Notes: generated by a model from the sequence alone, not told the origin. DNA of 64,000 bases from Candidatus Berkelbacteria bacterium (GCA_029865605.1 JAOUGE010000001.1:19840-83839), one strand, 5' to 3'; counted from the stretch's first letter, positions 12,191 to 44,547 are shown. Made by a program: numbers and translations.

Positions 12191-12195
12191 AATTT

Positions 12196-15059: not shown

Positions 15060-15428
15060 ATGAAAGCTCTAGATAAAGTTCTATCGGTAGGCGGAAAAAT
15101 TGCTGGCGTGGTTGCTCTGTCATCAATTTATGGTCCGGTGGCGCATGCGCAAATAACGCAAGGCCCGATTGAAGGGATTAGCCTTTATGGGGGGTCGCTG
15201 GGCGAATTGATCGATATTATTATCCAGGTCGTACTATGGGGCGCTGGGGCTATTGCTTTTGCTTATCTTATTTATGGCGGTATCTCGTATATCACCGCCG
15301 GCGGCGATGCGGAAAAAGCGGGTAAAGGCCGAACGGCAATCCTTAACGCGGTGATTGGTATAATCGTTGTTTCGGCTGCATTAGCTATTTACAAATTTGT
15401 TTTACAGGGCGTAGCCGGCGACCTCTAG
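15060..15428 (+). CDS. T4SS pilin-like small membrane protein, paralog 5
   Basis: LIYGGISYITAGGDAEKAGKGRTAILNAVIGIIVV motif. Strong RBS gggagggagaaaATG and a TTGACT/TATTGT promoter-like upstream region. Confidence 0.6.
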   Translation: MKALDKVLSVGGKIAGVVALSSIYGPVAHAQITQGPIEGISLYGGSLGELIDIIIQVVLWGAGAIAFAYLIYGGISYITAGGDAEKAGKGRTAILNAVIGIIVVSAALAIYKFVLQGVAGDL

Positions 15429-15449
15429 TCCAGTTGTTTTAAGAAGCTG

Positions 15450-18507: not shown

Positions 18508-18599
<92 letters not shown>

Positions 18600-31342: not shown

Positions 31343-31681
31343 CTACTTGGCGCGCCGGGGACGGCACTTGGCGCGTTGTGGCGGGTGTTTGTGGCGGGGC
31401 CACTTTACTGCTGGGTTGGCGGTGTCGAAAATGTCTGCGACGCTCGTGAAGAGTGCAAGAGCATTGCGCTCTTCGGTAATCAGACCAATTAGGTCCGATT
31501 TCGCAGGGCATTCCGCAAGCACTTTTACATGCTCTACTGCAATCCCTTTCAGGGCTTGTCCGATGGCCTCTGCCACTATCGATCGATGCTCAGGAGGAAT
31601 GTTTTTCAGCACTCCTCCCACGATCGTCTGCTCGCGCAGCCATTCCGCTTGGATCTCGCGGAACTCCGTCACGGATTTCAC
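31343..31681 (-). CDS. hypothetical protein (112 aa), second gene of a high-GC translationally coupled pair
   Basis: ATGA overlap with the upstream gene; basic C-terminus; about 58% GC flanked by AT-rich DNA; no family recognised. Confidence 0.4.
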   Translation of the reverse strand: MKSVTEFREIQAEWLREQTIVGGVLKNIPPEHRSIVAEAIGQALKGIAVEHVKVLAECPAKSDLIGLITEERNALALFTSVADIFDTANPAVKWPRHKHPPQRAKCRPRRAK

Positions 31682-32136
31682 CTCCTTCCTTTCCTGCGTT
31701 TCACGGCGGTCTTCTCCTTATCGCATTTCCCGCACGGGCACTTCCCTAGCCGCCAACCGTTTTCTGCCAGTAGGGCAGAGAAGCGCTCTGTTCCTAGATG
31801 GCGCTGGATACTTCGAAAGACGGTAGGGGGAAGATATCCGATCTGTTGTACATCGATATCTTCCAGGCAGGTCGTAGCGGCTTTCGCGACGAGCTCGACA
31901 TCTTGAGGGTCGGAAGGAGTATTGCTGTTCTCGTTTAGAGCGAGCACGGCGATTAGCCCCTTTAACGCCTCCCGCCGGGGTTCATTTCCCACAAGGGCTT
32001 CGAAGATCGCGCCGCAGATATCGGCGGCGAATACGTAACCGGTGATAGCCCTTCCTAACCCTTCTATCCAGGTGCATTTCACTGATTTTCCCCCTTCCGT
32101 TGTGTCAAACAGCGCCTCATATTGAGGTCGCGTCAT
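31678..32136 (-). CDS. hypothetical protein (~152 aa from internal ATG MTRPQYE), first gene of the high-GC pair; C-terminal CPCGKC plus basic tail
   Basis: The ORF-track N-terminal extension runs into AT-rich promoter DNA. The ATG at 32134-32136 is preferred. Confidence 0.35.
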   Translation of the reverse strand: MTRPQYEALFDTTEGGKSVKCTWIEGLGRAITGYVFAADICGAIFEALVGNEPRREALKGLIAVLALNENSNTPSDPQDVELVAKAATTCLEDIDVQQIGYLPPTVFRSIQRHLGTERFSALLAENGWRLGKCPCGKCDKEKTAVKRRKGRR

Positions 32137-32212
32137 TATGGCATAAGAGGCATAAAATGTCAAGTATAGCATACATATAAAAGCATATGATAAACCCGTA
32201 AAATGATAAATA

Positions 32213-32241
32213 TTGACAAATTGTCGTAAATAAGATACAAT
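32213..32241 (+). promoter_or_regulatory. consensus sigma70 promoter TTGACA -17 nt- TACAAT upstream of the first TrmB-family regulator
   Basis: Seen at 32213-32218 and 32236-32241; also contains the partial palindrome TTGACAAATTGTCG. Confidence 0.5.
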
Positions 32242-32261: not shown

Positions 32262-33026
32262 ATGAAAAACAAAGAAAAATATATTGATTCTTTTATTAGC
32301 CTAGGCCTCAAAAAACAGGAGGCAGAGGTTTATTTTGCCCTTCTTCAGCTTGGACGATCTACAGTGGGAAAAATTAGCCGACTTTCAGGTGTACAGCGAA
32401 CTTTTATTTATGATATTTTGGACGATTTATCCATTAAAGGATTAGTTACTTCGATAGAATCGGAAGGAATTAAAAGATTTTCTCCTATTCCGATAGAACA
32501 GTTTAGAAAAAGACAACTTGCGAAATTGGAGAATTTTGAGGAAATTTTACCCGAATTGAAAGCTCTGATTAAGACGACTGGAGAACGTCCCAAAGTACAA
32601 TTTTTTGAAGGCATCGAAGGTTTTATTATTGCTCAAGACGACACTCTGAATATGCCTAGAGGCAGTGAGATTTGCGCTTACTATACAGGTGAAGGGCTCT
32701 ACGAGGAACATCCAGAAATTCCCACGCGCTATGTGGGGGAGAGAGTAAAAAGGAGAATAAGCGTCCGAGCTATTTCTACAGATACACCCGCTACTCTTAA
32801 ATGGACCCAGCAGGATAAAGAGCAACTGCGGGAGAGCCGGATTGTATCTGCGGACAAATTTCCCTTTGCTAACGAGATCAACATTTATGGTAATAAAATT
32901 AGTATCTTATCGCTTCAAGGAGAAATTTTGGCTGTTGTAATTGAATCAGAAAGCATTGCTAAGACCCAAAAGGCGATTTTTGAGCTGGCGTGGGAAGGCG
33001 CGGAAAAATACAGGACTAAAAAATAA
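32262..33026 (+). CDS. TrmB-family transcriptional regulator (N-terminal winged HTH plus C-terminal sensor-like domain)
   Basis: EAEVYFALLQLGRSTVGKISRLSGVQRTFIYDILDDLSIKGLV. Confidence 0.6.
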   Translation: MKNKEKYIDSFISLGLKKQEAEVYFALLQLGRSTVGKISRLSGVQRTFIYDILDDLSIKGLVTSIESEGIKRFSPIPIEQFRKRQLAKLENFEEILPELKALIKTTGERPKVQFFEGIEGFIIAQDDTLNMPRGSEICAYYTGEGLYEEHPEIPTRYVGERVKRRISVRAISTDTPATLKWTQQDKEQLRESRIVSADKFPFANEINIYGNKISILSLQGEILAVVIESESIAKTQKAIFELAWEGAEKYRTKK

Positions 33027-33047
33027 AAACAAAAGGGACCAGACCGG

Positions 33048-34760
33048 TTAAATCACACTTTTCTGATAGCAGGTTTCGCAGTACACTTTTTCGGTTCTAT
33101 CGGGGGCGTAGGTGGTTTCGAACTCGTTTTTGCATGGGCCGGAGTGGTCGTGGTCTGTCTCTTCGCACATACACTGCCTGTGCCACAGTTTGCGCGGGTT
33201 GCGCAGCGAGAATAGGCCTTTGAATCTTTCTTCCCAGTGTTTTTTCGGTATCGGGATAGAATTTGCCATATAAAAGGCTAATTCCTGCGGCATAATCTTA
33301 AAGGGTTTGCCCGTTGTCTCGCACTTTAATATTCCCTTGAGGAGCTTCTCTCTTTCCTCCTCGTTTTCAACATAATTTTTAATATCTTTCGGCTCATAAA
33401 AAGGCCCATCGTATTTGATGTCGTAGTCATTATCTTGCCATTTGCTGCCGAGCTTTTTTGCTTCGTCTTTCTCGAGCGGGTAATAATTCATTGCCACCGT
33501 TTCGTTGTAGCCGAAAGGGCTCATTGAAATCGGAAAAAATTCTCCCCACTCCCCACGCTCGATCATCTTCTCGATTATTTGAGGCACTAGCTTTTCGTAT
33601 CCTTCTTTTGTGTATTGCTTATTCAAGATGCAATATTCTTTATGGTTTCGAAGATCGATGCAGCCGAAACAGTTTGAGACGCTATTAAGACACTCAAAGG
33701 AATAATAAACGTTTTTAATGTCGAGACACGAAACTATAAAGGCACTATTATAATGCTCCTCTCCGCAAACCGATTGGTAGGTGAGCTCGTTAGTGGCAGA
33801 AATATTAATGTCTTGGCTGTCGCGCACTTTTATATCGTCGAAAACATACTTAGCATTTTCGGCGTCTTCTAAACTGAAAACGTACTTACAGTTTTTGCAA
33901 AATTTTATCTTATCGCCGAGCGAATTTTCGCAATTGTGCTGTTCGGTTGGTTTGACTGGTAAGGCAATCATCTTTTGCCTGATCTCGAGCAGTTTCCCCA
34001 AATTCCAATCTTTGAATTCTTTGACAAATTTTTCGAATTCTTCTTTTGTTTTCTGCTCGTTGAGGATGCAGTAACTCTTATTGCGCAGGTTTTTGCATCC
34101 AAAACAGTTGTTGCAGCCGATTAGGTTCTCGGAAAAATAGCACTCCGAGGTGTTGACGCAGTTGATTAAGAATTTTGAACGGTTTGATTTTCGGCAGTCG
34201 AGGCATCCATAGAGATACTCGCAGTCAATAACAAATAGGGAGTCAACGCAATCTTTCGCGCGATAAGCCCAATTGCAGTAATAACAGTTCTCGCAGTATC
34301 TTGAGGCAAAGCACATATAAGAGTTTTTGCTGTTGCCAAAATAGTTGCCGTATTCGGAGTTCTCGTTCTCTACCTGCACGGCGGCCATGCGAGGAACTTT
34401 TTTGAGAATTTCATTGACCTGTTCTAAAAACGGCCTTGTCGGGTTATAGTCCTGGCCGTAATCAGTCGCGTCCCATTTGTCAGACCACCAGCAATCATAG
34501 CAATAGACGTTATATTCCTTGTCCGGCGAGTAGATGCTGATAATGTCTTTCTGGCAGGAGTTGCATTTTCTCTTATAGAGCTTCTGCTCGTTTCTGAAGG
34601 CGAGCCGATTTTGCTCGCGGCAATGGGGACACAAATTGGGCGGGGGAATGTCAAAAGTTTTTCCACCAAAAACAGGGGAGATTTTTTTGTAAAAGGCCAG
34701 ATCAGTGTCTGTTATCTCGAATTTAGCGCTGCAAACTTTGCAGGTTTTTGTAATTGCCAT
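33048..34760 (-). CDS. cysteine-rich protein (570 aa, >50 Cys). N-terminal paired CxxC zinc-ribbon-like motifs, repeated C-x2-C-x2-C-x8-C modules, internally duplicated ~50-aa unit
   Basis: CKVC...CPHC, CNSC...CYDC, CENCYYCNWAYRAKDC, CNNCFGCKNLRNKSYC. Duplicated NCFGC..LRN...YCILN.Q.TKE.EK.V units. Confidence 0.6.
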   Translation of the reverse strand: MAITKTCKVCSAKFEITDTDLAFYKKISPVFGGKTFDIPPPNLCPHCREQNRLAFRNEQKLYKRKCNSCQKDIISIYSPDKEYNVYCYDCWWSDKWDATDYGQDYNPTRPFLEQVNEILKKVPRMAAVQVENENSEYGNYFGNSKNSYMCFASRYCENCYYCNWAYRAKDCVDSLFVIDCEYLYGCLDCRKSNRSKFLINCVNTSECYFSENLIGCNNCFGCKNLRNKSYCILNEQKTKEEFEKFVKEFKDWNLGKLLEIRQKMIALPVKPTEQHNCENSLGDKIKFCKNCKYVFSLEDAENAKYVFDDIKVRDSQDINISATNELTYQSVCGEEHYNSAFIVSCLDIKNVYYSFECLNSVSNCFGCIDLRNHKEYCILNKQYTKEGYEKLVPQIIEKMIERGEWGEFFPISMSPFGYNETVAMNYYPLEKDEAKKLGSKWQDNDYDIKYDGPFYEPKDIKNYVENEEEREKLLKGILKCETTGKPFKIMPQELAFYMANSIPIPKKHWEERFKGLFSLRNPRKLWHRQCMCEETDHDHSGPCKNEFETTYAPDRTEKVYCETCYQKSVI

Positions 34761-34853
34761 AATAATTTTGTTTAAATATTAATCCATATAATAACCTAAA
34801 TCAATCATATGTCAAAGTGTTGACACAGTTCGACAACAATATAGAATAGAAAC

Positions 34854-35591
34854 ATGGAAATTTTGAGCGAGAAAGAAAAGAAGGTTTTGAGCGGGTTATA
34901 TGAGCTCTCAAGAGCGACGGTTTGGGATTTAAGTAAAGAGGTTGGGATAAATCGAACTACGCTCTACCCTATTTTGGAGAAACTGCTCGAGCGGGGTTTA
35001 GTTTCGAAATTGTCGGTTGAGGGACACACGGTTTATGAGCCGATTTTATACAAAGATTTTAAGCGATGGATTAGCCGCGAGAGAAAAAAAGCAAAAGATG
35101 CGGCGAATGATCTTCTCAGGTGGGTTGATGCACAAGAAAAAAATAGCGCGCCGGCGCTTTTATCTGATTTTAAATATTTTGAGGGGCACGGCGGGGTTGA
35201 GGCGCTTTATGCTGATAGCTGGCGAGAAAATAAGGGCAAAATTATCTATTGCATAACAGATTATAAAGCGGCCCTCACGACGATGGGAGATTTTTTTAAC
35301 AACGAATATTTTCCTGATCGGGTTTCTCGCGGCGTGTGCGTCAAAAACCTAGTGCCGGAGTCGGCTCTCGGCCGCAGCGAGCTAAAACGCAAAAAAGAAC
35401 TTCTGCGCGAGGTGAAATTTATTGATATTTTTGAGGATTTGGGGATCGAAGTAAATATCTATGACGATAAGATCTCCATCGTTGCTTATGATAAAAAGTT
35501 GCCCTCGGGCGTTTTAATTAAAAATGCGAAGATAGCAGAGGCATTGAGGAAAATATTCGAGTATTTGTGGAGAGAGAATAAGCGGAGTTAA
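34854..35591 (+). CDS. TrmB-family transcriptional regulator, second paralog
   Basis: KKVLSGLYELSRATVWDLSKEVGINRTTLYPILEKLLERGLV. Confidence 0.6.
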   Translation: MEILSEKEKKVLSGLYELSRATVWDLSKEVGINRTTLYPILEKLLERGLVSKLSVEGHTVYEPILYKDFKRWISRERKKAKDAANDLLRWVDAQEKNSAPALLSDFKYFEGHGGVEALYADSWRENKGKIIYCITDYKAALTTMGDFFNNEYFPDRVSRGVCVKNLVPESALGRSELKRKKELLREVKFIDIFEDLGIEVNIYDDKISIVAYDKKLPSGVLIKNAKIAEALRKIFEYLWRENKRS

Positions 35592-35863
35592 TCTAGAACA
35601 ATTTTTATCGCTTTGCCTTCAATGATTGCTCTGGAAATTTTACGGTAGGCAGAATGTAAGATGCGCTGAAAAGTGCTTTGGGAAATTTTCATTTTTTTTG
35701 CCGCTTCGATCTGATCCAGATTTTCAATGTTTTTCAACCTTATTGCTTCAGCTTCGTCGGCTGAAATTTCAATAATATCCAAAAAACGCAAAGGGATACC
35801 TTGCGGCTTAAAAAAATAAGCATTGTGCTTAAATCTGATAAATCGGCATTTTCTTGGTCTCAT
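35588..35863 (-). CDS. DUF134/UPF0251-family predicted DNA-binding protein
   Basis: MRPRKCRFI...FKPQGIP...EISADEAEAIRLKNIENLDQIEAAKKMKISQSTFQRILHSAYRKISRAI matches the family consensus. Confidence 0.7.
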   Translation of the reverse strand: MRPRKCRFIRFKHNAYFFKPQGIPLRFLDIIEISADEAEAIRLKNIENLDQIEAAKKMKISQSTFQRILHSAYRKISRAIIEGKAIKIVLD

Positions 35864-35931
35864 TTTTTGTTATAATCTTAGTGCGGGGTGCCCCGACTTC
35901 CGACGTAACAGTCGGAATGTCGGGGCGCCTT

Positions 35932-36183
35932 TTAGTTGCTTTTCAGCTCGTCAACTCTCTCGCGGACAGCCTTGAGATCCGCCTCAAGATCTTTTGCTTC
36001 ATCTTTAAGGCTTTCTAGCTCCTCGGATCGAGTCAAGTACATCCTTGGGCTATTTCCCGCTTGGCCCCAAATCCAGGGACAGGAGCGACCAAAGCCACGC
36101 CTGAATCCCGCGCCGCAGGGGCCGAGGCCTCGGCCAGTCCCCGCGCCCATTCCCATAGGGCCAGTTCCATCAAATCTTGGCAT
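35932..36183 (-). CDS. DUF5320-family small protein (from internal ATG: MPRFDGTGPMGMGAGTGRGLGPCGAG... with C-terminal coiled coil)
   Basis: MPRxDGTGPMGMG signature. The ORF-track N-terminal extension is AT-rich junk. Typical DUF134 neighbour. Confidence 0.6.
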   Translation of the reverse strand: MPRFDGTGPMGMGAGTGRGLGPCGAGFRRGFGRSCPWIWGQAGNSPRMYLTRSEELESLKDEAKDLEADLKAVRERVDELKSN

Positions 36184-36330
36184 TTCGTTCACCCCCGATC
36201 TTAATTTAGCTTGTATTATGAATATATATGCAAAATGGGGATTTGTCAAGAGGGTACTTCTCGCAGACGTTAGAAATGACATATTGGAGAAATTGTTTGA
36301 GAAATTGCTCAAACCTGTTAGGATTACCTT

Positions 36331-36906
36331 GTGCAACAGGCTTTTATTATTTTAAGTAGTGTTTCGATCTTGGCGGCTTATTTTATTTATGAGTGGTCAA
36401 TTGTAACAGGGAGAACGCGCCCTCATCGGACGACTAGATTTGTTATTTTTATCGTTGCGGCGCTTGGCGCAACGTCGCTTTTTGCCGGACAGGATCGGGT
36501 GGCAGTTTGGCTTTTGGGAATTTGCGCCATCCAATCGCTAGTTGTCTTTCTCATGTCGTTTAAATGGGGGATGGGCGGTTGGGCCAAGACGGATATTTTG
36601 TGTCTGGCGATTGCTCTTTTGGGGATTATTGTATGGCAGCTGACGGACAATCCCGCCCTTGGCCTTTATGCTGCGATCACGGCTGATTTTGCCGGGATGG
36701 TACCGGCGTTGATTAAGACTTATCGCCTGCCTCACACCGAGTATTGGCTTTCTTACATCTTTGATGTTGTAGCGGCTGGATTTACGCTTCTGGCGATCCA
36801 AAAGTGGGAGCTGCAGGGTTTTTCTTACCCGCTTTATATCCTAGTTATTAATATTGTGATGTTGATTTTGATTTTTCGTCCCAAACTTCTTCCCAAACCC
36901 GCCTGA
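36331..36906 (+). CDS. small polytopic membrane protein (6 TM), unknown transporter-like
   Basis: Hydropathy; Trp-rich helices. Confidence 0.4.
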   Translation: MQQAFIILSSVSILAAYFIYEWSIVTGRTRPHRTTRFVIFIVAALGATSLFAGQDRVAVWLLGICAIQSLVVFLMSFKWGMGGWAKTDILCLAIALLGIIVWQLTDNPALGLYAAITADFAGMVPALIKTYRLPHTEYWLSYIFDVVAAGFTLLAIQKWELQGFSYPLYILVINIVMLILIFRPKLLPKPA

Positions 36907-36918
36907 ACCTGATATTAT

Positions 36919-37626
36919 TTGCCTGTCGTAGAACCCTACAGGAAGGAGGCCGGCGAGATGCGGCCTTACATCAACGACTTGCTTTGCTCGCTGAAAGGTA
37001 GCTGGGTGGGTAAGATCGTTGCGTGCGTGTTGTATCCGCTGATGTATTGGCCGTTATTCGTCGGCCAGTATGTCAATGCGCTGATCTGTGAGCGTTTGGT
37101 GAACGCGTGGCCGCGGATCGGCGGGGTTGGGCTGTACAAGACCGCAGCAGAGTTGACGCGCGAGTTGGTCGCAAATGGACGTTTCACGACAGTCGTTCTC
37201 GGCGGCAACGAGGCCGAGCAGAAGCAGTTCCTAGCTGAATACCGGCCGGAATGGCTCACGAGTCTTGATGTATCGGATGGGACGTACCCCCAGGTGAGAG
37301 GGGTCGTCGATTACGCCGAGCAGTATGGCTTGCCTGCGATCTGTATTATCACGCACGAATCGCTTCTAACCAGAGCGGCTCTGACCGTGGTGAAACAGCT
37401 CAAAGAACGCGAGATGCGTCTGCCGGTATACTGCGAGGCGTACCTCGATCTATCTCGGCTTGAGCTGAAGTGGTATGAGGTAACGCTGGCCTCGGCGAAT
37501 GAAGCCTTGAGCCTCTTGCGCTATCAGAGGAGAGGCCACGTTGCCACGCATCGAGAAACGCTGGAGTATCTCCGGGACGTCTCCTGGGAGGAACGGCCGG
37601 GAGGAGTCCTGTTTGTCATCGTGTAG
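36919..37626 (+). CDS. hypothetical protein in a high-GC islet; weak resemblance to DUF218/YdcF-like
   Basis: TTVVLGGNEAEQ ... ICIITHESLLTRAAL. About 60% GC. Followed by a GC-rich terminator hairpin at 37642-37675. Confidence 0.3.
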   Translation: MPVVEPYRKEAGEMRPYINDLLCSLKGSWVGKIVACVLYPLMYWPLFVGQYVNALICERLVNAWPRIGGVGLYKTAAELTRELVANGRFTTVVLGGNEAEQKQFLAEYRPEWLTSLDVSDGTYPQVRGVVDYAEQYGLPAICIITHESLLTRAALTVVKQLKEREMRLPVYCEAYLDLSRLELKWYEVTLASANEALSLLRYQRRGHVATHRETLEYLRDVSWEERPGGVLFVIV

Positions 37627-37687
37627 AGTCAGCGATACCCACGGGCGGGAAAGGGGGCCGCCCGATGTATTTATAAAAAGGATTGAA

Positions 37688-38779
37688 ATGTCATTGTCAA
37701 TCGGTATTGTTGGGCTTCCGAACGTTGGAAAATCAACGCTTTTTAATGCACTTTTGAAGTCACCTCTGGCGCGGGTGGCGAATTTTGCTTTTACAACGGT
37801 TGAACCGAATATCGGGGTGGTCGAGGTGCCGGATGAGCGGGTAGAAAAATTGGCCGAAGTGGAAGGAAGCGCTAAAGTCACACCGGCGACAGTGAGGTTT
37901 GTTGACATTGCGGGATTAATTGCCGGAGCGCATAGAGGCGAGGGATTGGGGAACAAGTTTTTGGCCCATATCCGTGAGGTTGATGCGATCGCGATGGTGG
38001 TGAGGACTTTTGAGCATAAGGATGTTGCTCATGTTTCGGGCAAGATCTCGCCTAAAGATGATATCGAGACGATTTTGACCGAGCTCGTGTTGGCCGATAT
38101 GGAAACTTTGCAAAAGAGACTAGGCGTGGCCGAAAAAGATGCTAAATCGGGTGACAAGACCGCTCGAAAACAAGCTGAAATTTACAAAAGAATTGCTGCA
38201 ATGTTTGACAAGAATAAACCGGCGATTGAGGCAAAGCTTGATGACAAGGAGAGAGAATTGATCGGCGAGTCCGGTTTTCTAACTTTAAAACCATTTTTAT
38301 ATGTTTTTAACGTCGGCGAGGAGGGGGCAACACAGGCGCCGGAGGATTTAGTGGAGGAGTATGAGCTTGAGGTAAAATCAGAGCAGGTGGTGGTGATTTC
38401 GGCGAAAATCGAGTCGGAGCTCTCTGACTTGTGCGAGGGGGACCGCTGCGAATATTTAAAAGAATTGGGGCTTGATGAGCCGTCTTTAAACAAACTAATT
38501 CGCTCTGCCTATAAAACCCTCGGGCTAGTTTCATTTTTCGTCGTCAATCAAAATGAGGCGCGAGCCGAAACGGTAAGAGATGGTGCCACGACACCCGTGG
38601 CGGCGGGCAAGATTCACAGCGATTTTGAGGACAAATTTATTAAAGCGGAAGTGACGCGAGCGGATGATTTTATAAAATATGGCGGCTGGAAAGGGGCACA
38701 TGAAGCTGGCCGAACTCGTTTTGAGGGCAAGGACTCTGTGGTACAAGAAGGGGACGTGATGTTTTTCCACCATAGGTAG
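37688..38779 (+). CDS. ychF: ribosome-binding ATPase YchF (Obg-family GTPase)
   Basis: MSLSIGIVGLPNVGKSTLFNAL at the internal ATG 37688; TGS-like C-terminus. Confidence 0.85.
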   Translation: MSLSIGIVGLPNVGKSTLFNALLKSPLARVANFAFTTVEPNIGVVEVPDERVEKLAEVEGSAKVTPATVRFVDIAGLIAGAHRGEGLGNKFLAHIREVDAIAMVVRTFEHKDVAHVSGKISPKDDIETILTELVLADMETLQKRLGVAEKDAKSGDKTARKQAEIYKRIAAMFDKNKPAIEAKLDDKERELIGESGFLTLKPFLYVFNVGEEGATQAPEDLVEEYELEVKSEQVVVISAKIESELSDLCEGDRCEYLKELGLDEPSLNKLIRSAYKTLGLVSFFVVNQNEARAETVRDGATTPVAAGKIHSDFEDKFIKAEVTRADDFIKYGGWKGAHEAGRTRFEGKDSVVQEGDVMFFHHR

Positions 38780-38824
38780 CTTATAAATTGGTTACGGGCG
38801 CCCCCTGTGGGGCGCCCGCGTGAG

Positions 38825-39178
38825 CTATCGCTGTCTTCGGGAAGGAGCATCGTTAGGGGCACCTTTGTAGCGGTGGGCCCGGACGAACTCCCGAAACTGG
38901 ACAGGGCGGAAGTGGCCGGTGAAGGCCACAACCGCTTCGACGGCGGCGAGGGCGAGGCACCAAGCCGCGACGATCCACATCCGGCCACCTTCTGTTGCCA
39001 TCGCGATGCCCAGTGGCACCGAGACGAGGAGGCCGATTGTCGCGAGCCAGGCGAGGTTTACTCGCCAGCACTCTAGCTGGTAGCCGACCGTGTTAACGTG
39101 CATGTCGCTCATCCTCTGCAGTGATACCCTGGTCTTGCCGGGGTCCGTCTGTAAAAGAACAACGGTTAAATATACCAT
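38825..39178 (-). CDS. small hypothetical membrane protein in a 65% GC island
   Basis: Two hydrophobic helices; start uncertain; weak call. Confidence 0.25.
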   Translation of the reverse strand: MVYLTVVLLQTDPGKTRVSLQRMSDMHVNTVGYQLECWRVNLAWLATIGLLVSVPLGIAMATEGGRMWIVAAWCLALAAVEAVVAFTGHFRPVQFREFVRAHRYKGAPNDAPSRRQR

Positions 39179-39299
39179 ATCTGAACCTGATTGTCAATGC
39201 GTTGACACCTGTTTTTTCAGGCAGTATGATTAAACTATGAGTCTAGGAGTATGGTTGACTGCTCCTAGGCCAGCTCCTTTCTGGAAGGGGGATGGTCGT

Positions 39300-39890
39300 A
39301 TGCGCACGATGTGTCGCGGACCTTCGTTGATGCTGGTGGCGTTGCTCGTTCTGGCGTTGGCAGCGTTCGCAGTGGGAGCGGCTGGCTGCTCGACCGCGAA
39401 GGCCGACAAGATGACGGCGACAGCGGCTCCAACGATCTTCACGGCAACAGTGGGCATCGACGACGACATCGGTGGGCAGTCCATCTTCACGCAGACGGTA
39501 GCCGCGCGCGGCCCAACCCGAGACGCGGCCGCGGCGCAGACCCTCACCGGCATGATCGCCCAGAAGACGGCCACCACTGACCGCGTGGCGAACGTGGCGA
39601 TCAAGACGATGGACCCGAAGATCGGTGACATCAGTGTCGGGCAGTACCGCCTCCTGGCGGCGGCGTACAACGGTAGCATCGTGGACAACAAAGTGGCGAC
39701 GGCCATGCGCGGCAGCCCAGGCATCGTGGCTTCCCCGACGGCAACCGCCAACGACATCACCGGCAACCGCACGAACGCGGACACGGTGGCACAGACGCTC
39801 TCTCCCCAAGGAGGTCGGCAGGTCCACAAAGTCCTTGTGGCCAACTACCTCGGCACCGGGGGCGCCGGTTGCCAGAAGACCCGCTGCTAA
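39300..39890 (+). CDS. lipoprotein (signal peptide with AAGC lipobox), Ala/Thr-rich, in a 65% GC island
   Basis: ATG at 39300 with RBS ggaaggggga. MRTMCRGPSLMLVALLVLALAAFAVGAAGCS. Terminator hairpin at 39977-40030. Confidence 0.4.
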   Translation: MRTMCRGPSLMLVALLVLALAAFAVGAAGCSTAKADKMTATAAPTIFTATVGIDDDIGGQSIFTQTVAARGPTRDAAAAQTLTGMIAQKTATTDRVANVAIKTMDPKIGDISVGQYRLLAAAYNGSIVDNKVATAMRGSPGIVASPTATANDITGNRTNADTVAQTLSPQGGRQVHKVLVANYLGTGGAGCQKTRC

Positions 39891-39976
39891 CGACGAAGCG
39901 GCGGGGGGGCAACGGCCCCCAAGACATCCTGGTCGAGTTGGGCCCCTCTGGCCAGCTCGGCCTCGCACTCATACCC

Positions 39977-40030
39977 GGGCGCGGACCCCTTTGTGGGACC
40001 GCGCCCGTTCGCGTTTAATTAGCTTTAATT
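39977..40030 (+). terminator. GC-rich hairpin (gggcgcggaccc/gggaccgcgccc) plus T-rich tract
   Basis: Seen in sequence; marks the 3' end of the high-GC island. Confidence 0.5.
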
Positions 40031-40083
40031 TTGTGCTAAAATTAAAAAAGAGAAATCCTAATTTGAGTTGAAGGAGGTTTTAG

Positions 40084-40869
40084 GTGATTGTTACTCCCCA
40101 AGCTGGACAGGGTGCTCCGCCAGGGCCCGAAAGCGCTGTCTCACCAGCTCCTGCTGAAGCACCTCCTGCCCCTGCCGTGCCTCCCGTTCCGGAGGCAATA
40201 CCTCCGGCTCCACCGGTTGTGGGGCAAGCTCCACCGGTGGCTGAAGTGGCGCCTGACCTGTCAGCTATTCTAGAAGCTCCTCAAGTGACTGCTCCGGCGG
40301 CAGCGCCGGCGGGCGAAGCGGCTCCTCCACCTCCTGTTGCTCCGCCGCCGACAGAAGAATTGATTGAAAACCCTTCGCAGCCTGGAGCTCTTGAGGGGTT
40401 AGAAACGGCAGTTGCTGCTCCTCCCATTCCGGCTGATCAAGGCAATATCGGTGAAACCGCGGCGGCTGATGTTGTGGCAGCCGCAGAGCCAACTGCTCCC
40501 TCAATTCCTACACCCGATCAAGCTCCGGTGATTGACGCAGCGGGGGTCGCTCCGGCAGCTCAAACCGAAACCGCTCCATCAGCCCCGGCTGGCCTCTCGG
40601 AAATGCCTGCAACGACACCTCCCCCCGAAGCCGTTGCTCCCCCCGTATCTGAACCTGCCGCTCCAGTCGCGCCAGAACCGATTGTTACACCCCCCGCGTC
40701 TGAACCCGTTATAGGTTCAATTAGTCCAGAAGTAGCCAGACCCGTTGAGCAATTGACTGATGAGGAATTGCAGGGACAAGCTGTAGGTGGTCATTTAGCG
40801 CTTGATGAACTGGCGAGGAGAAGAGCTGAAAGGGGCGCAGAACAAAATATAACCCGGGAGGCGGCATAA
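40084..40869 (+). CDS. proline/alanine-rich low-complexity protein (261 aa)
   Basis: GTG start with RBS gaaggagg; PAPAEAPPAPAVPPVP composition. Confidence 0.4.
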   Translation: MIVTPQAGQGAPPGPESAVSPAPAEAPPAPAVPPVPEAIPPAPPVVGQAPPVAEVAPDLSAILEAPQVTAPAAAPAGEAAPPPPVAPPPTEELIENPSQPGALEGLETAVAAPPIPADQGNIGETAAADVVAAAEPTAPSIPTPDQAPVIDAAGVAPAAQTETAPSAPAGLSEMPATTPPPEAVAPPVSEPAAPVAPEPIVTPPASEPVIGSISPEVARPVEQLTDEELQGQAVGGHLALDELARRRAERGAEQNITREAA

Positions 40870-41519
40870 TGGCATCACTTGACGTTTTATATCTAATCTT
40901 GGGGGTTTGCGTTGTTGTTATCACCGTAACGATTGTTTGGCTTGCCAGCGAAACAAGACAGCTAGTGCGCTCACTTAAACGCTCGGCTCAGGATACCGAA
41001 GTTGTAACCAAGGAAATAAAGGAGAAGGTTCTGCTGGTCGGCGAGGCGCTTGATCGGGCTGGAACGGCTGCTACGACCGTCATTGGTCTGATTGAGGATG
41101 CGATTGAGCAAATCGAAGAAAAGCGCGACCAGATTGTCGGCTCAATTGGTCTTCTGACCGGTGCTGGAAAGTACGTAAAACAGCGTCGCGAAGGGGCAAA
41201 AAAGGAAAAAGCAGAAGCAGGAAAAGAGAAAAAAGAAGTTCCGAGAGCGGAGGTTAAAGAGAAGCCTAAGGAATTGGAGAAGAAAGAAATTAAAAACGAA
41301 GAAGTAGAAACCCCCGAGCCGATTAGCGAGAAGAAGAATATGGGTTCATTTGTCCTTGGTCAGAAAAAAGTGGAAACATCCCCGCCTATGCAAGCTCGTG
41401 ATGATGAAGAGTCAAAGAAAACCAAGACAGAGAATAAGCCGGACGCATCTCGACTCTCGCCTCGGTTCGAGTCGAAGCGGGTCGGTAAAGACGAGGCAGA
41501 AGAGTTAGATAAGAAATAA
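40869..41519 (+). CDS. N-terminally anchored coiled-coil protein with Lys/Glu-rich tail
   Basis: TM helix LYLILGVCVVVITVTIVWLA; the C-terminus carries one copy of a 30-nt repeat also present at 439-468. Confidence 0.45.
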   Translation: MASLDVLYLILGVCVVVITVTIVWLASETRQLVRSLKRSAQDTEVVTKEIKEKVLLVGEALDRAGTAATTVIGLIEDAIEQIEEKRDQIVGSIGLLTGAGKYVKQRREGAKKEKAEAGKEKKEVPRAEVKEKPKELEKKEIKNEEVETPEPISEKKNMGSFVLGQKKVETSPPMQARDDEESKKTKTENKPDASRLSPRFESKRVGKDEAEELDKK

Positions 41520-41526
41520 ACCAACC

Positions 41527-42306
41527 ATGAAGCGAAAACTTAGCGCAAGGAGATGGCTGGTTTTTTTGTTGGTTTTACTCGCTCTTTTGGCGGTAGCATT
41601 TTTTATTACGAAATATTATCTCTCACAAGATGCGGTGACCGAGAGAGAGAAGGCAAAGCTGCCGACTCTGTCGGCAGGTCAGTCTCCGGTCTCTAGCGTC
41701 CAGTCTCCAACCGCCAACCCATCTCCATCAATAAATTCCATACCAGAGGAATTGAATTTAGATGTACCGTTTACTCCACAGGCACCGCACGCTAATTGGG
41801 ATTATACCCACGAGGAGGCCTGCGAGGAGGCGGCAGTTTTGATGGCCGGGAGATATTTCAGGGGGCAAGGAATTTCTGGGGCCGATGACGCGGAAAAGGG
41901 ATTGCAGGAAATTATCGGCTGGGAAAAAGAGAACTTGGGATTTTTCGAGTCGACTACAGCCGAAGAAACAGTCAGGGTTATAAAAGGAATTTATGGCTTG
42001 AATGCGCAGGTCATTGAAAATCCGACAGTTGGGCAGACGAAGGTGGCATTGGCGCAGGGAAAATTGGTATTGAGTCCATCAGCCGGCCGGGAAATCGGCA
42101 ACCCATTTTATAAAAGTCCGGGGCCCCTATATCATATACTTTTAATCAAGGGCTATACGAAGGACAAATTTATCACCAACGATGCTGGGACGAAAAGAGG
42201 AGAGAACTATCCTTATGTTTTTAAAACGGTGCTTGACGCCAACCACGACTGGAATGGTGGGAATGTGGGAGACGGTCGCAAACTGATGATTGTTGTTTCG
42301 CGCTAG
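41527..42306 (+). CDS. N-terminally anchored papain-like peptidase, C39-like (Peptidase_C39_2/BtrH-like) domain
   Basis: YTHEEACEEAAVLMAGRYF (Cys) and PLYHILLIKGYT (His) spaced as in C39-like peptidases. Confidence 0.5.
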   Translation: MKRKLSARRWLVFLLVLLALLAVAFFITKYYLSQDAVTEREKAKLPTLSAGQSPVSSVQSPTANPSPSINSIPEELNLDVPFTPQAPHANWDYTHEEACEEAAVLMAGRYFRGQGISGADDAEKGLQEIIGWEKENLGFFESTTAEETVRVIKGIYGLNAQVIENPTVGQTKVALAQGKLVLSPSAGREIGNPFYKSPGPLYHILLIKGYTKDKFITNDAGTKRGENYPYVFKTVLDANHDWNGGNVGDGRKLMIVVSR

Positions 42307-42437
42307 CCTACTCAAATCCGAGACGGTTCGCACTTAGTACAGATTGACAAAGAGGGCTCTTTATGGTTCAATTTAGGCATCTCGTTGCCACGGATGAAGC
42401 ATAAACTACACTACCCGTAAGGGAGGGAGGGACTGCC

Positions 42438-42647
42438 GTGGGAGAAAGCTGTATGTGCAGCGTCGCAGAAGGCCCTACTGGGGTTGTCATTAGGTCGCTT
42501 GCCAGACAGGGTCGCCAGCAGCACTGCAAGACCGGAGACCGGAACGGCCACGAGCCCGAGCACTTTGGCAACCCCTACTCGGCGAAGGAGTGTGCCGAGG
42601 TAGGTTGCCCGAACAGGGCAGAGTGTGGAGGTAACGGCTCCGGATAA
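42438..42647 (+). CDS. small cysteine-rich ORF (69 aa) with GTG start and a strong RBS; coding status uncertain
   Basis: ggagggagg 7 nt upstream of GTG. TTGACA at 42344-42349 is promoter-like. Six Cys; C-terminal CGGNGSG. Confidence 0.25.
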   Translation: MGESCMCSVAEGPTGVVIRSLARQGRQQHCKTGDRNGHEPEHFGNPYSAKECAEVGCPNRAECGGNGSG

Positions 42648-42823
42648 CGCACCAACGACAAGCTAACACGGGCAGCGAGATGCCAGGGGGACGCTCCCGC
42701 TCTGGGAGGGTAGCGGGTGCATTGTCCCGTCTTACCTATCGAGGGCGCCCCCCAACTTTTTGTAGAATCCCCCGCGAGGTGGATTTTTTTGTCCGCTTTT
42801 GGTAGGATTTCTTCGGTTAGCAA

Positions 42824-42855
42824 GGCCCTGTCGTCTAGTGGTTAGGACGCGAGGT
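42824..42855 (+). pseudogene. tRNA 5'-half fragment (acceptor, D-arm and 5' anticodon stem), 23 nt upstream of tRNA-Glu
   Basis: GGCCCTGTCGTCTAGTGGTTAGGACGCGAGGT aligns with tRNA-Glu positions 1-32 at 24 of 32 identities. No 3' half. Confidence 0.5.
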
Positions 42856-42878
42856 ACATTATAATAAATTCAATTGGG

Positions 42879-42953
42879 GGTCCCATCGTCTAGTGGTCAG
42901 GACGCAAGGTTCTCATCCTTGTAACGGGAGTTCGACTCTCCCTGGGATCACCA
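42879..42953 (+). tRNA. tRNA-Glu (anticodon CTC), CCA encoded
   Basis: Manual fold: acceptor GGTCCCA/TGGGATC, D-stem GTCT/GGAC, anticodon stem CAAGG/CCTTG with loop TTCTCAT, T-arm GGGAG-TTCGACT-CTCCC. Confidence 0.85.
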
Positions 42954-43087
42954 TAGTGGATTTATCAAAAGAATTAGCTTTTTGTTTTGAACACTTTGAT
43001 ATTGACTTTTTAAGATAAAAAGGGAAAATACAAGGCGATTTTCGCACCTCGATAGAGAGCAAGACTACTAGGGAGGAGGATGGAGCG

Positions 43088-43738
43088 ATGTTGCAGCTCA
43101 TAGCTGTGTTTGTCGTAGCAGCTCTGGCTGGACCCTCGCTATCCGTTCCCCGCTTGCCAGAGACATCCGGCAAGCCCTGCGCATGCACTAGTAGCGCTCC
43201 CCTTGCCGCGACTGCGGCGCGAATCCCAGCTATTTCTCCGGGCAAAGAACCTCAACTGGTTCTCGCCCGACCTGCCGCAGAATTGGCAGAACCCCTGCCG
43301 CTCTCGCTCCAGGCGCTTGTGGAGAGGATTGAGGGAGATCCGAATGCGCCGGAGTGGAAGAGGACTGTCACCCAGCGGATTCGCGCTCGCCGGATAGGAC
43401 GCTTTGACGCGTATCTAACGGCGTACTGCACGGACTCCTCCGCCGACTCGACGGGTGGAGGGCCGTGCGCCGCTTGGGACGGTATCCCACTTCGCTGGGG
43501 GCACGCCGCCAGCGACTGGCGGCATGTCCCAAAAGGCACAGTCCTCTTCGTCGGGCCGCCCGTTGACGCGATCTTGATCGTTGTCGACAACGGCCCGGGC
43601 GTTAAGGGCCCAGGCCGGCTTGATATATGCACGACAGACGGAAGCGTTTACAGGCTGCTGAGCCGGCAGATTAGTGCTGGTCAGCCCGCGGCCTGTTGGC
43701 GCCTTGGACGAAAAACGACATCAGCGGAAGCGCGCTAG
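43088..43738 (+). CDS. secreted 3D-domain protein (MltA/RlpA-like double-psi beta-barrel), ~62% GC
   Basis: YLTAYCTDSSADSTGGGPCAAWDGIPLRWGHAASDWRHVPKGTVLFVGP ... GRLDICT matches the 3D domain pattern. Confidence 0.5.
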   Translation: MLQLIAVFVVAALAGPSLSVPRLPETSGKPCACTSSAPLAATAARIPAISPGKEPQLVLARPAAELAEPLPLSLQALVERIEGDPNAPEWKRTVTQRIRARRIGRFDAYLTAYCTDSSADSTGGGPCAAWDGIPLRWGHAASDWRHVPKGTVLFVGPPVDAILIVVDNGPGVKGPGRLDICTTDGSVYRLLSRQISAGQPAACWRLGRKTTSAEAR

Positions 43739-43848
43739 CGCTTCCGCGATCGAGGTGTGATGACCTGTGGCCGCCCTTGATTTCGCCCACGGGCGGAATC
43801 GGGGCGGCCACTATGACGTTAAATTGCTTTGATTTATAACCTCAAGAC

Positions 43849-44547
43849 GTGATAAGATTTCGACGTATGGCAAAAAAAGAAATTGTTATTAAAGCAAAAG
43901 ATTTGCAAAAAACCTACCGTCTCGGTAGGCGAAATTATGTTAATGCCTTAAATGGCGTTGATTTTGAGCTGGAAAAGAGTGATTTTGTTGCTCTAGTTGG
44001 TCCTTCGGGATCGGGTAAATCAACTTTTATGCACCTTGTTGGCCTTTTGCAGGCACCATCGGCTGGGAAAATTTGGATTAAAGGCGAGGAAATGACCAAG
44101 GTATCAAAAAGATCTTATCCGCGTTTTCGGGCCGAACATATCGGTTTTGTTTTTCAGGGTTTTAACTTAATCCCGACTTTAACTGCTAAAGAAAATGTAA
44201 TGCTTTCCGGCCGCTACGCCGGCATGAGCCATCGCTTAGCCAGAGATCATGCTGAAGAGCTTTTGGCTAAGTTTGGCCTTCAAGATAGAATGAATCACAA
44301 ACCGGATGAACTTTCCGGCGGTCAGCAGCAACGAGTTGCCATTGCTCGGGCCTTGATCAACAGTCCGGCGATAATCCTTGCCGATGAGCCGACAGGGGAA
44401 CTTGACAGTAAAACTTCAAGGGAGGTTGTGGAGATGTTGAAAGAGCTTAATAGCTCAGGCCAGACGATTTTGATTGTTACCCACAATACCGAGGTGGCAA
44501 AAATGGCAAAAAAGATTGTAGAAATGAAGGATGGCAGGATCGTATGA
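43849..44547 (+). CDS. ABC transporter ATP-binding protein (MacB/LolD-type)
   Basis: GPSGSGKST, LSGGQQQRVAIARAL, ILADEPTGELD. Confidence 0.85.
   Translation: MIRFRRMAKKEIVIKAKDLQKTYRLGRRNYVNALNGVDFELEKSDFVALVGPSGSGKSTFMHLVGLLQAPSAGKIWIKGEEMTKVSKRSYPRFRAEHIGFVFQGFNLIPTLTAKENVMLSGRYAGMSHRLARDHAEELLAKFGLQDRMNHKPDELSGGQQQRVAIARALINSPAIILADEPTGELDSKTSREVVEMLKELNSSGQTILIVTHNTEVAKMAKKIVEMKDGRIV

Follow-up and report, generated by a model that had tools for sequence, protein, structure and literature searches.

Background

The closest described relatives of the regulators considered here are TrmB and TrmBL2 of the Thermococcales (structures 3qph, and 5box and 5bqt), which carry a PF01978 winged helix; TrmBL2 has about 260 aa, and the classical TrmB of 338 aa has a sugar-binding subdomain. 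VirD4/TraD coupling proteins are known from systems in which their substrates or adaptors are encoded adjacently, as for relaxases, the XVIPCD effectors of Xanthomonas and DotL-IcmSW. In Patescibacteria, a 2025 survey counted 5,713 VirD4-like coupling ATPases, nearly all encoded away from a T4SS and without known role (PMC12102498). Cysteine-rich proteins with closely spaced CxxCxxC motifs include the ferredoxin-type and radical-SAM Fe-S proteins. Other cysteine arrangements are found in the Pfam families zf_Tbcl and zf_Tbcl_2 (PF13451 and PF23477), probable treble-clef Zn fingers to which, to our knowledge, no function has been assigned, and in short-coil Cys beta-helices such as the spruce budworm antifreeze protein (AFP, 1m8n), the ryegrass ice recrystallisation inhibitor (IRI, 3ult) and the curli protein CsgA (8c50).

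Gene organisation of the locus

The DNA analysed is a 64-kb stretch, hereafter the window, of a Candidatus Berkelbacteria MAG, in which six adjacent genes had been read in a first-pass annotation as one regulated metal- or redox-related module. The genes, and one promoter needed to place a start codon, are as follows.

32262-33026, + strand: TrmB1 (PF01978, E=3.2e-16)
33048-34760, - strand: Cys-rich gene, 570 aa (ORF)
34854-35591, + strand: TrmB2 (PF01978, E=2.8e-10)
35588-35863, - strand: DUF134 gene (PF02001, E=7.4e-19)
35932-36183, - strand: DUF5320 gene, 83 aa, corrected start (PF17253, E=1.2e-13; gene call)
36249-36221, - strand: promoter of the DUF5320 gene (11/12)
36331-36906, + strand: six-TM membrane protein (six hydrophobic segments; no family match)

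The order and strands previously given for all six genes are confirmed from the ORFs, and Pfam agrees with the family labels, TrmB1 and TrmB2 scoring 59.4 and 40.3 bits against PF01978 (cut-off 25.6), DUF134 68.6 bits and DUF5320 52.5 bits (cut-off 27). The DUF134 protein, earlier described as sigma-region-4-like, matches PF02001 and, weakly, sigma-70 region 4; the six membrane segments of the small protein were also counted. The DUF5320 start most likely lies at 36183 (MPRFDGTGPMG...) and not at 36336, because of the ENA gene call, a Pfam match that begins at residue 52 of the long ORF, and the position of the promoter. TrmB1 is convergent with the Cys-rich gene across a gap of 21 bp and TrmB2 is divergent from it; the two regulators, just 28% identical over 239 aa, are the sole TrmB-like genes of the window, and both abut its single Cys-family gene, of which the window holds no further copies or pseudogene remnants.

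The claim of one regulated module stood only in part. Linkage to TrmB genes recurs at other loci of the Cys-rich family; around 78 such loci (1.25 Mb), however, DUF134 and DUF5320 gave no match at E<1 and the six-TM protein a single one. The six-gene module was rejected because these three genes, never recurrent beside the family in the loci searched, do not accompany it elsewhere. The DUF134 and DUF5320 genes have their own promoter, are convergent to TrmB2 and have no adjacent Fe-S genes in the window; a second DUF134 gene of the same MAG lies 5.3 kb from a Cys-family pair. Literature searches on DUF134/DUF5320, taken in the first-pass annotation for known neighbours of Fe-S genes, returned nothing relevant. 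Plausibly, only the two flanking TrmBs, and not the DUF134, DUF5320 and membrane protein genes, belong with the Cys-rich gene.

A large CPR-restricted family of Cys-rich proteins

Of the 570 residues of the Cys-rich protein, 37 are Cys. A word index gave more than 7,233 matches, all of about 570 aa and from CPR MAGs. The family, which comprises 5,507 clusters at 50% identity, is very large, undescribed and seen only in CPR bacteria, and the window gene is a solo copy of it. The protein has no sequence match in Pfam, NCBIfam or PDB, so that the possibility, left open in the first-pass annotation, of its falling into a well-characterised family was not borne out; nothing relevant on the family and its Pfam-like names was found in the literature. 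As neither a TM or hydrophobic segment nor a signal peptide is predicted in the protein, family members are predicted to be cytoplasmic. Identity with the large Cys-rich proteins of Peribacteria, which are extracellular, have about 1,655 aa and carry signal peptides (PMC4736985), was ruled out, these being of a different class. A mobile-element or phage origin was also discarded, the family having no plasmid or phage matches and one partial viral-contig match.

In the AF2 model (pLDDT 81, pTM 0.84) the protein is internally duplicated, with two predicted beta-solenoids followed by a linker and enclosed between two putative Zn modules.

34377-34760, - strand: N-terminal putative Zn module, residues 1-128 (Cys conservation, covariation, pLDDT >90)
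34047-34376, - strand: predicted solenoid half 1, residues 129-238, Cys/Asn/Tyr-rich, holding both C-x2-C-x2-C-x8-C modules
33609-33956, - strand: predicted solenoid half 2, residues 269-384, internal duplicate of half 1
33051-33332, - strand: C-terminal putative Zn module, residues 477-570, duplicate of the N-terminal module

The duplications were detected with hhalign, both for the solenoid (residues 130-268 against 269-402, probability 99.9%, E=1.5e-31) and for the terminal modules (98.7%, E=3.9e-16). Mean pairwise identity is 53-58% in the terminal modules and 36-37% in the solenoid halves: the former are the conserved parts of the protein and the two Cys/Asn/Tyr-rich halves the variable ones.

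Probable zinc sites rather than Fe-S ligands

Cysteine conservation was measured as occupancy in an alignment of 45 sequences. At the ends of the protein, the nearly invariant C7/C10/C44/C47 and the invariant C530/C543/C561/C564 are occupied at 0.90-1.0. A second site of the N-terminal module, C66/C69/C87/C90, is present in the window protein and in about 36% of the family, with C69/C87/C90 gained or lost all-or-none (phi 0.99-1.0), and the alignment positions of C483/C508/C511 also covary (phi 0.72-0.98); in the window protein this first site of the C-terminal module is degenerate (C480, H508). The terminal modules therefore appear, from these patterns, to carry genuine Cys4 sites, presumably for zinc. 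They share with zf_Tbcl and zf_Tbcl_2 the pattern CxxC...F-x-I-x3-(D/E)-L-x-F-Y...P-x2-C-x2-CR followed by a basic helix, and these profiles match weakly in 13 and 21 of the 45 relatives at E<=1 (best 6e-6); one relative has a precomputed PF13451 match, and the window protein, at 13.8 bits, stays below the gathering score of 27 (E=0.05). Unlike in these families, the module occurs twice, once at each terminus of a protein of 570 aa.

The middle of the protein holds the C-x2-C-x2-C-x8-C modules on which the Fe-S assignment had been based, and exactly two were found, with the following occupancies in relatives.

C156/C159/C162/C171: first module, 0.11/0.56/0.24/0.64
C216/C219/C222/C231: second module, 0.98/0.89/0.78/0.40

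The solenoid cysteines follow a 3/12-residue register, are occupied at about 10-80%, are replaced by Ser, Thr, Ala or Val, and scarcely covary (phi <=0.39, against 0.72-1.0 for the Zn ligands of the same proteins). Only the terminal cysteines act like metal ligands, being 96-100% conserved or gained and lost together; those of the solenoid behave, in the alignment, as interchangeable residues of a core ladder and not as cluster ligands, and the fold predicted for this region is a beta-solenoid, not a ferredoxin-like one. Neither a CxxCxxCxxxCP nor a CxxxCxxC signature is present, in contrast with ferredoxin-type and radical-SAM proteins, the motif cysteines are not conserved, and no Fe-S family or fold match (ferredoxin, radical-SAM, SPASM or other) was obtained for the protein. 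The proposal that an Fe-S or other redox metallocluster protein forms, with the TrmB, DUF134 and DUF5320 genes, a regulated metal/redox module can draw on the two exact motifs, the second fairly conserved, on TrmB2 orthologs that elsewhere flank radical-SAM enzymes and a superoxide dismutase and, post hoc, on a second DUF134 gene, Zip, Nramp and ferritin 5-8 kb from other copies in the same MAG. Set against the poorly kept first module, the cysteine replacements, the missing ligand-set covariation and fold match, and the absence of DUF134 and DUF5320 from the other family loci, it seems to us very improbable. The Fe-S or ferredoxin reading of the protein was rejected on cysteine occupancy, covariation and fold, and with it the metal/redox reading of the locus is left unsupported; the cysteines of the family seem to have a structural or zinc-binding role and not to hold iron-sulfur clusters. 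An attractive earlier reading is thereby corrected, many cysteines not necessarily meaning Fe-S.

TrmBL2-like regulators and a predicted shared bidirectional promoter

The AF2 model of TrmB1 (pLDDT 95) shows a wHTH, a long coiled-coil helix and a PLD-like C-terminal domain without a sugar-binding subdomain. By Foldseek the model matches TrmBL2 (5box/5bqt) over its full length at E=6e-15 and TrmB (3qph) at 7e-10, and its C-terminal domain matches PLD3/F13 at E~1e-5, so that, as modelled, TrmB1 has a TrmBL2-type architecture. The models for classical sugar-sensing TrmB (NF040851 and NF047390) are reached at only 35-36 bits against cut-offs of 600-650, over residues 3-112, and neither window TrmB has the sugar-binding C-terminal domain or the length of about 340 aa that distinguish these regulators. 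No relevant literature on TrmB in Patescibacteria was found.

Across the 78 other Cys-family loci, a TrmB-like gene lies immediately upstream and divergent of Cys-family genes in 25 of 41 cases (5.6 expected, P=3e-12), a 4-5 fold excess over a gene-slot null, which upholds the earlier claim of a link between the Cys-rich gene and TrmB-type regulators. The idea that the two flanking TrmBs are dedicated to this family lost ground, since in other genomes their closest orthologs adjoin unrelated, varied genes. TrmB1 groups with array-associated regulators (the nearest are 41% and 38% identical); TrmB2 clusters apart from these, in a separate, well-conserved CPR orthologous group (45-79% identity) whose examined members adjoin radical-SAM, SOD and small unknown genes, none of them beside Cys-family genes.

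The promoter scan and palindrome search gave the following elements.

32213-32241, + strand: TrmB1 promoter, TTGACA-17-TACAAT
34788-34815, - strand: promoter of the Cys-rich gene, TTGACA-16-TATTAT, 11/12
34810-34825, no strand: palindrome TGTCAA-AGTG-TTGACA, candidate TrmB2 operator, whose arms are both divergent -35 hexamers
34820-34847, + strand: TrmB2 promoter, TTGACA-16-TAGAAT, 11/12

The Cys-rich gene and TrmB2 have a common predicted bidirectional promoter in which the palindrome supplies both -35 boxes, the TrmB2 -10 element ending 6 nt before the ATG. The TrmB1 promoter lies within a block kept upstream of TrmB1 orthologs (TTGACAnATTGT...GATACAAT). The 16-mer palindrome (spacer AGTG or ACTG) is found 44-48 nt upstream of 4/4 TrmB2-group genes in four genomes, and palindromes of the form TGTnnn..nnnACA occur in 8 of 31 TrmB-Cys intergenic regions, where 0.3-0.5 are expected. 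As an operator specific to the Cys family, TGTCAA-N4-TTGACA was rejected because it accompanies genes of the TrmB2 group irrespective of what lies next to them. An 8-mer operator common to TrmB1 orthologs and the nearest array-associated TrmBs was likewise abandoned, these having only promoter-like elements in common.

These observations bear on a reading in which the neighbourhood is incidental. The Cys-rich protein would be structural or buffer metals (its solenoid acting as a Zn/Cu sink or scaffold), independently of its neighbours and perhaps constitutively, and the TrmBs would be there only because such regulators of about 250 aa abound throughout CPR genomes. In favour of this reading, these regulators number 2-3 per 16 kb at some loci, those associated with arrays are not one clade, ortholog neighbours are varied, and each chain has 37 Cys. 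We consider it rather unlikely in view of the excess of divergent TrmB-Cys adjacency, the position of both TrmB-like genes of the window against its one family member, and a -35/-35 palindrome that ties the promoter of the Cys gene physically to that of TrmB2.

Paralog arrays and a VirD4-like ATPase

Elsewhere the Cys family occurs in same-strand arrays of 1-9 old, individually conserved paralogs. Recent tandem amplification, or turnover resembling antigenic variation, was rejected because adjacent copies are only about 43% identical and their best matches lie in other loci. Two partners recur: the TrmBL2-like regulator of about 250 aa, divergent at the array head or within the array, and a probably soluble VirD4/TraD-like P-loop ATPase, co-directional at the array end. 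The ATPase genes adjoin Cys-family arrays in 23 of 28 cases; conversely, 27 of 80 ATPase-centred loci have adjacent Cys-family genes, all in one ATPase subfamily. The array ATPase scores 37.8 and 31.6 bits against TrwB_AAD_bind and T4SS-DNA_transf (cut-off ~20) and 8.5e-16, far under the equivalog cut-off, against conju_CD1115. By a crude method, no Kyte-Doolittle segment >=1.6 indicative of an N-terminal TM anchor was seen in the first 300 aa of the ATPases of two loci (L037 and L082). The window gene has no ATPase neighbour, and tblastn with the array-type ATPase gave no match in the 64 kb; the same MAG encodes an ATPase and two family copies on another contig.

A partnership of Cys proteins and a HerA/FtsK/VirD4-type ATPase might alternatively form a cytoplasmic anti-phage or anti-plasmid conflict system without secretion, with solenoids as sensors and the ATPase as motor or effector. 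The missing membrane anchor would fit this, as would weak ATPase matches to the PADLOC models mad8 (2e-13) and HerA, matches of the ATPase to phage families (phrog_5156 at 3e-71, Bacillus phage G gp156) and of the solenoid region to phrog_15341 (3e-5), and the many paralogs with a variable middle, typical of recognition modules. Against it, PADLOC models do not match the Cys protein, domains of nucleases or other effectors were not recognised, the paralogs are old and individually conserved and not fast turning over, plasmids and phages lack the family apart from the partial viral-contig match, and neighbour clustering shows no arrays beside other defence genes; we regard such a system as quite unlikely.

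Proposed function and significance

Our best explanation, which as a whole we judge about evenly poised between right and wrong, combines a solo copy of the CPR family, its co-repression by TrmB2 and a role as client or adaptor of the ATPase. TrmB2 bound at the palindrome would shut off both its own gene and the Cys-rich gene, resulting in auto-repression and co-repression of whichever gene lies divergent. TrmB1, tail-to-tail and with its own conserved promoter, could be a second local regulator or act by convergent transcription, and the DUF134, DUF5320 and six-TM genes would be bystanders. Members of the Cys family may serve the orphan coupling-type ATPases of Patescibacteria as clients or as specificity adaptors. 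Their conserved basic Zn modules would then be the shared ends for docking or for binding nucleic acid, and the variable solenoid a specificity surface, with each old paralog dedicated to a different target.

CPR genomes of about 1 Mb carry between about eight and perhaps dozens of copies of this 570-aa gene, a large investment in an undescribed protein, and the two-way genomic linkage gives orphan VirD4-like ATPases a candidate partner. TrmBL2-like proteins emerge as a major class of portable regulators acting locally in CPR, and the bidirectional cassette of promoter and operator that goes with them can be recognised. More speculatively, and with a minor chance of being right, the Zn-module/beta-solenoid family could be the missing partner of thousands of orphan VirD4-like ATPases and a new client class. 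If so, its members would be cargo delivered to a host cell or adaptors loading nucleic acid or protein, kept as old, functionally distinct paralog sets under TrmBL2-type local repressors, and the whole would constitute a new machine for transport or remodelling, specific to CPR and of central importance for their episymbiotic lifestyle.

Comparison with known systems

The window TrmBs share the PF01978 winged helix with the Thermococcales regulators, and TrmB1, at about 250 aa, also the long dimerisation helix and PLD-like domain of TrmBL2; they differ in being bacterial (CPR), in being only 18-20% identical to TrmBL2, in lacking the sugar-binding subdomain of TrmB, and in belonging to a massively expanded set of local regulators near varied cargo genes. 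The short-coil beta-helices of AFP, IRI and CsgA have no sequence relation to the Cys-rich protein, whose solenoid is flanked by Zn modules in a predicted cytoplasmic protein without signal peptide and in which nothing points to an ice or amyloid function. Compared with VirD4/TraD systems, the array ATPase has no predicted TM anchor, is almost never near virB4 and is not accompanied by relaxases, and the proposed clients combine Zn fingers with a predicted beta-solenoid and are encoded as arrays of old paralogs. As in those systems, the ATPase directly adjoins its proposed clients and is co-directional with them, and the conserved end modules and variable body of the Cys family recall effectors that carry a common VirD4-interacting domain.

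Gene set of the Cys-rich locus

The six open reading frames of the first-pass annotation were all recovered, in a Candidatus Berkelbacteria MAG (locus tags OEV37_00280-00290).

Genes of the locus (window positions, strand, product)
32262-33026, plus: TrmB1, TrmB-family regulator
33048-34760, minus: 570-aa Cys-rich protein (Cys gene)
34854-35591, plus: TrmB2, TrmB-family regulator
35588-35863, minus: DUF134 protein
35932-36183, minus: DUF5320 protein, 83 aa
36331-36906, plus: membrane protein with six hydrophobic segments (6-TM protein)

Pfam supports the winged-helix TrmB assignment of both regulators (E=3.2e-16 and 2.8e-10), as well as DUF134 (E=7.4e-19, with weak sigma-70 region-4 matches too) and DUF5320 (E=1.2e-13), the start of the latter being corrected to 36183 as the most likely one; neither the 570-aa protein nor the membrane protein has a Pfam or NCBIfam match. 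There are 37 Cys in the Cys-rich protein, in which the C-x2-C-x2-C-x8-C module occurs exactly twice. The locus had been read as a regulated six-gene module with an Fe-S or redox role; the linkage to regulators holds, whereas the Fe-S/redox role and the six-gene module do not.

With respect to the module, DUF134 and DUF5320 gave no match even at E<1 in 78 loci carrying relatives of the Cys gene, and the 6-TM protein gave one. The DUF134/DUF5320 run has its own promoter (36249-36221) and is convergent to TrmB2, DUF134 and TrmB2 overlapping tail-to-tail by 4 bp. A second DUF134 gene of the same MAG, 5.3 kb from a family pair, is regarded as a probable coincidence. Post hoc, this DUF134 gene and a Zip transporter were seen ~4-5 kb downstream of a cluster of one ATPase gene and two family copies (L082:15790-17312), and Nramp and ferritin/rubrerythrin genes ~3-5 kb past a three-copy array of this MAG (L080:18092-20106).

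A CPR-restricted family of old paralogs

A word-index search returned more than 7,233 relatives of the Cys-rich protein, all of ~570 aa, and every named match belongs to CPR/Patescibacteria lineages. When 1.84 billion representatives were searched exhaustively with a profile, 5,507 clusters scored E<=1e-3, of which 2,305 reached E<=1e-30; nearly all are 545-600 aa long. The family was not found in plasmid and phage collections, and 2.9 million viral contigs yielded one partial match.

From a one-genome-per-species scan with at least 593 matches, the best 78 loci were analysed (1.25 Mb in total). Within a locus of <=21 kb, 1-9 full-length family genes stand in tandem on one strand; adjacent copies are 43% identical (IQR 40-45), none exceeding 70%, and for 155 of the 171 copies the best match lies in a different locus. 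The paralogs are old, and the arrays are therefore sets of copies maintained one by one and not the product of recent amplification. In the MAG of the window, one contig carries an ATPase gene followed by two copies, a different contig has three copies with no ATPase gene beside them, and on a related contig an ATPase gene precedes at least seven; the Cys gene of the window is a solo, ordinary-looking member.

Architecture and role of the cysteines

Profile-profile comparison showed the protein to be internally duplicated twice, the N-terminal module (6-94) aligning with the C-terminal module (479-568; E=3.9e-16) and the first half of the predicted solenoid (131-251) with the second (276-397; E=1.5e-31). 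Mean pairwise identity in the family is 50-58% in the conserved ends and linker and 26-37% in the variable solenoids and helical hairpin. No sequence-related solved structure was found, and neither a TM segment nor a signal peptide is predicted.

The repeated Cys modules had been thought to fit Fe-S cluster binding, yet in relatives the first is poorly kept (0.11/0.56/0.24/0.64) and the second fairly conserved (0.98/0.89/0.78/0.40). The invariant or near-invariant Cys are terminal only (C7, C10, C44, C47, C480, C530, C543, C561 and C564), and the middle columns follow a strict 3-residue register with an occupancy of 0.1-0.8, alternating with Ser/Thr/Ala/Val. Across 241 members, C69/C87/C90 (phi 0.99-1.0) and C483/C508/C511 (phi 0.72-0.98) are gained and lost together; phi for solenoid pairs never exceeds 0.39, and the best-covarying of these are spaced by 12 residues, which places them one above the other on adjacent coils. 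The protein matched no Fe-S family or fold, and occupancy, covariation and this absence speak against Fe-S ligands. Metal may be bound at the cap motifs C216/C219/C222 and C367/C377, since these are well kept (0.83-0.94). It is also possible that the middle region is an array of small Zn knuckles instead of a solenoid, because the solenoid was modelled without metals and at moderate confidence.

TrmB-like regulators and a candidate operator

Genes for ~250-aa TrmB-like proteins occur in 35 of 79 loci (the best 78 and the contig of the window). Of 42 full-length regulator genes, 32 directly precede a family gene in divergent orientation, 11 of them being also convergent with the preceding family copy; a null of gene slot and orientation predicts 5.6 where 25/41 were observed (P=3e-12). 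Among the 80 ATPase-centred loci, TrmB-like genes are found in only 3.

Regulators of the TrmB1 and TrmB2 types are not dedicated to the family. TrmB2 orthologs (45-79% identity) occur in several CPR classes; in the three orthologs that were examined, the neighbours are radical-SAM/SPASM/B12, superoxide dismutase, and small unknown or binding-protein genes, and the closest TrmB1 orthologs (57-65%) also adjoin unrelated genes. Neighbour joining placed TrmB1 with regulators found beside arrays (41% and 38% identity) and TrmB2 with non-array orthologs (51-60%), the array-associated regulators falling into more than one clade. Elsewhere, the 'TrmB(+) / cargo(-) / TrmB(+)' sandwich seen at this locus also surrounds a B12-binding radical-SAM gene (L085:8001-11109), and TrmB1-like and TrmB2-like genes bracket three radical-SAM/SPASM genes (L084:3278-8735). 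Pairs of TrmBL2-like regulators around cargo that can be swapped may thus represent a cassette general to CPR. Some CPR genomes are dense in TrmBL2-like genes, with three per 9-12 kb (L086:8001-16660; L088:1-11730), alternating in L086 with periplasmic-binding-protein genes.

Promoters around the two regulators
Cys gene, minus: TTGACA-16-TATTAT, 11/12
TrmB2, plus: TTGACA-16-TAGAAT, 11/12
TrmB1, 32213-32241: 11/12, inside a block conserved upstream of TrmB1 orthologs
Divergent from TrmB1, 32135-32163, minus: 11/12, TTGACA-17-CATAAT with TG

The 93-bp spacer between the Cys gene and TrmB2 holds TGTCAAAGTGTTGACA at 34810-34825, whose arms are the -35 hexamers of the Cys-gene and TrmB2 promoters. 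All four TrmB2-group genes, from four genomes, have the same 16-mer at 44-48 nt before their start, with AGTG or ACTG as its spacer; the divergent gene beside it differs in each, with a plausible reverse-strand -10, judged by eye, at 17 nt. The palindrome is thus inferred to be a candidate TrmB2 auto-operator, although two abutting -35 boxes would give the same appearance. TrmB2 bound there would silence both promoters, so that the Cys gene would be co-repressed together with TrmB2; this co-repression through a shared palindrome is proposed, from the sequence, with moderate confidence. Array-heading regulators elsewhere have their own palindromes (TGTAGAA-N4-TTCTACA in four Peribacteria loci), and a perfect TGTnnn...nnnACA palindrome occurs in 8 of 31 TrmB-Cys spacers versus 0.3-0.5 expected.

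On the other side, TrmB1 and the Cys gene converge with their stop codons 21 bp apart (33027-33047) and no terminator-like hairpin between them, because of which convergent transcription could matter. A 134-aa gene (31678-32082, minus; C-x-C-G-K-C motif at its end) stands under the control of the promoter divergent from TrmB1 and is followed by 109-aa and 447-aa (4-TM) genes; the three have no family match and sit where arrays would place a further family gene.

A candidate VirD4-like ATPase partner

Unbiased clustering of the remaining ORFs in the best 78 loci yielded one further recurrent family only, of ~747 aa, in 25 loci. Because of its matches to TrwB_AAD_bind, T4SS-DNA_transf, DUF87 and TraG-D_C in Pfam and to conju_CD1115 and SXT_TraD in NCBIfam, it is assigned by sequence as a VirD4/TraD-like coupling ATPase; no N-terminal membrane anchor is predicted in the array-associated protein. 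Its gene is directly adjacent to and co-directional with the array in 23 of 28 cases (gaps of 15-900 bp). Reciprocally, starting from the ATPase in metagenome contigs, adjacent co-directional family genes were found in 27 of 80 loci. By count, all 27 belong to the ~52 loci in which the ATPase shares >=40% identity with the query; the 28 loci with a more distant ATPase have none. In some ATPase-centred loci, L142, L154, L157, L159 and L160 among them, one or two family genes form a cassette between a long (~700-750 aa) and a short (~500 aa) VirD4-like ATPase, the latter without the N-terminal DUF8128 region.

We regard as established that the family exists, how its members are built, what kind of cysteines they have, their arrays, the two-way ATPase linkage and the TrmB adjacency. 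Beyond this, the family proteins are proposed, with low to moderate confidence, to be clients or specificity adaptors of soluble VirD4-like ATPases, in which the conserved basic Zn ends would dock and the variable solenoid would confer specificity. Rival readings are a cytoplasmic conflict system, a chance proximity of genes in which the Cys protein would be structural or buffer metal, and the Fe-S module of the first-pass annotation.

The window has no VirD4-like gene in its 64 kb. About 15-28 kb from the Cys/TrmB locus, at 4229-16994, T4SS / type IV pilus genes of the Patescibacteria type lie together.

Other features of the window
5671-7788: VirB4/TraC-like ATPase (P-loop_TraG 1.6e-26, AAA_10)
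12196-13908: CHAP+glucosaminidase wall hydrolase, VirB1-like
15450-16994: PilB/T2SSE ATPase
18510-18599, minus: tRNA-Ser
42879-42953, plus: tRNA-Glu

GC-rich blocks (0.52-0.585; background 0.41-0.48) occupy 1-4000 and 36000-44000; there is no rRNA, only the two tRNA genes listed above, and Pfam matched none of the genes at 39.2-43.7 kb.

Comparison with known systems

No description of the family or of its link to t4cp was found in the literature searched. A 2025 survey of 2,918 Patescibacteria genomes counted 5,713 VirD4-like genes; virB4 was close by for only 148 of them, and relaxases were nearly absent; its neighbourhood analysis covered virB4 only, and its authors stated that exaptation of t4cp 'cannot be ruled out' (PMC12102498). 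The locus is of interest for the family that it exposes, which is large and specific to CPR, has neither a structural match nor a description in the searchable literature, and is tied to the orphan coupling ATPases. One such ATPase (L037:12058-14301) aligns over near full length with Bacillus phage G gp156 (JN638751.1 90937-93093; 23% identity); the array-associated ATPase also matches phrog_5156 (3e-71) and the Cys-protein solenoid region phrog_15341 (3e-5), both PHROG families of unknown function. Weak similarity links the end modules to zf_Tbcl and zf_Tbcl_2, two Pfam fingers labelled 'probable treble clef'. Along its entire length the TrmB1 model (pLDDT 95) aligns with TrmBL2 (E=6e-15); the match to TrmB is weaker. 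The model has a PLD-like C-terminal domain and lacks the sugar-binding subdomain of classical TrmB.
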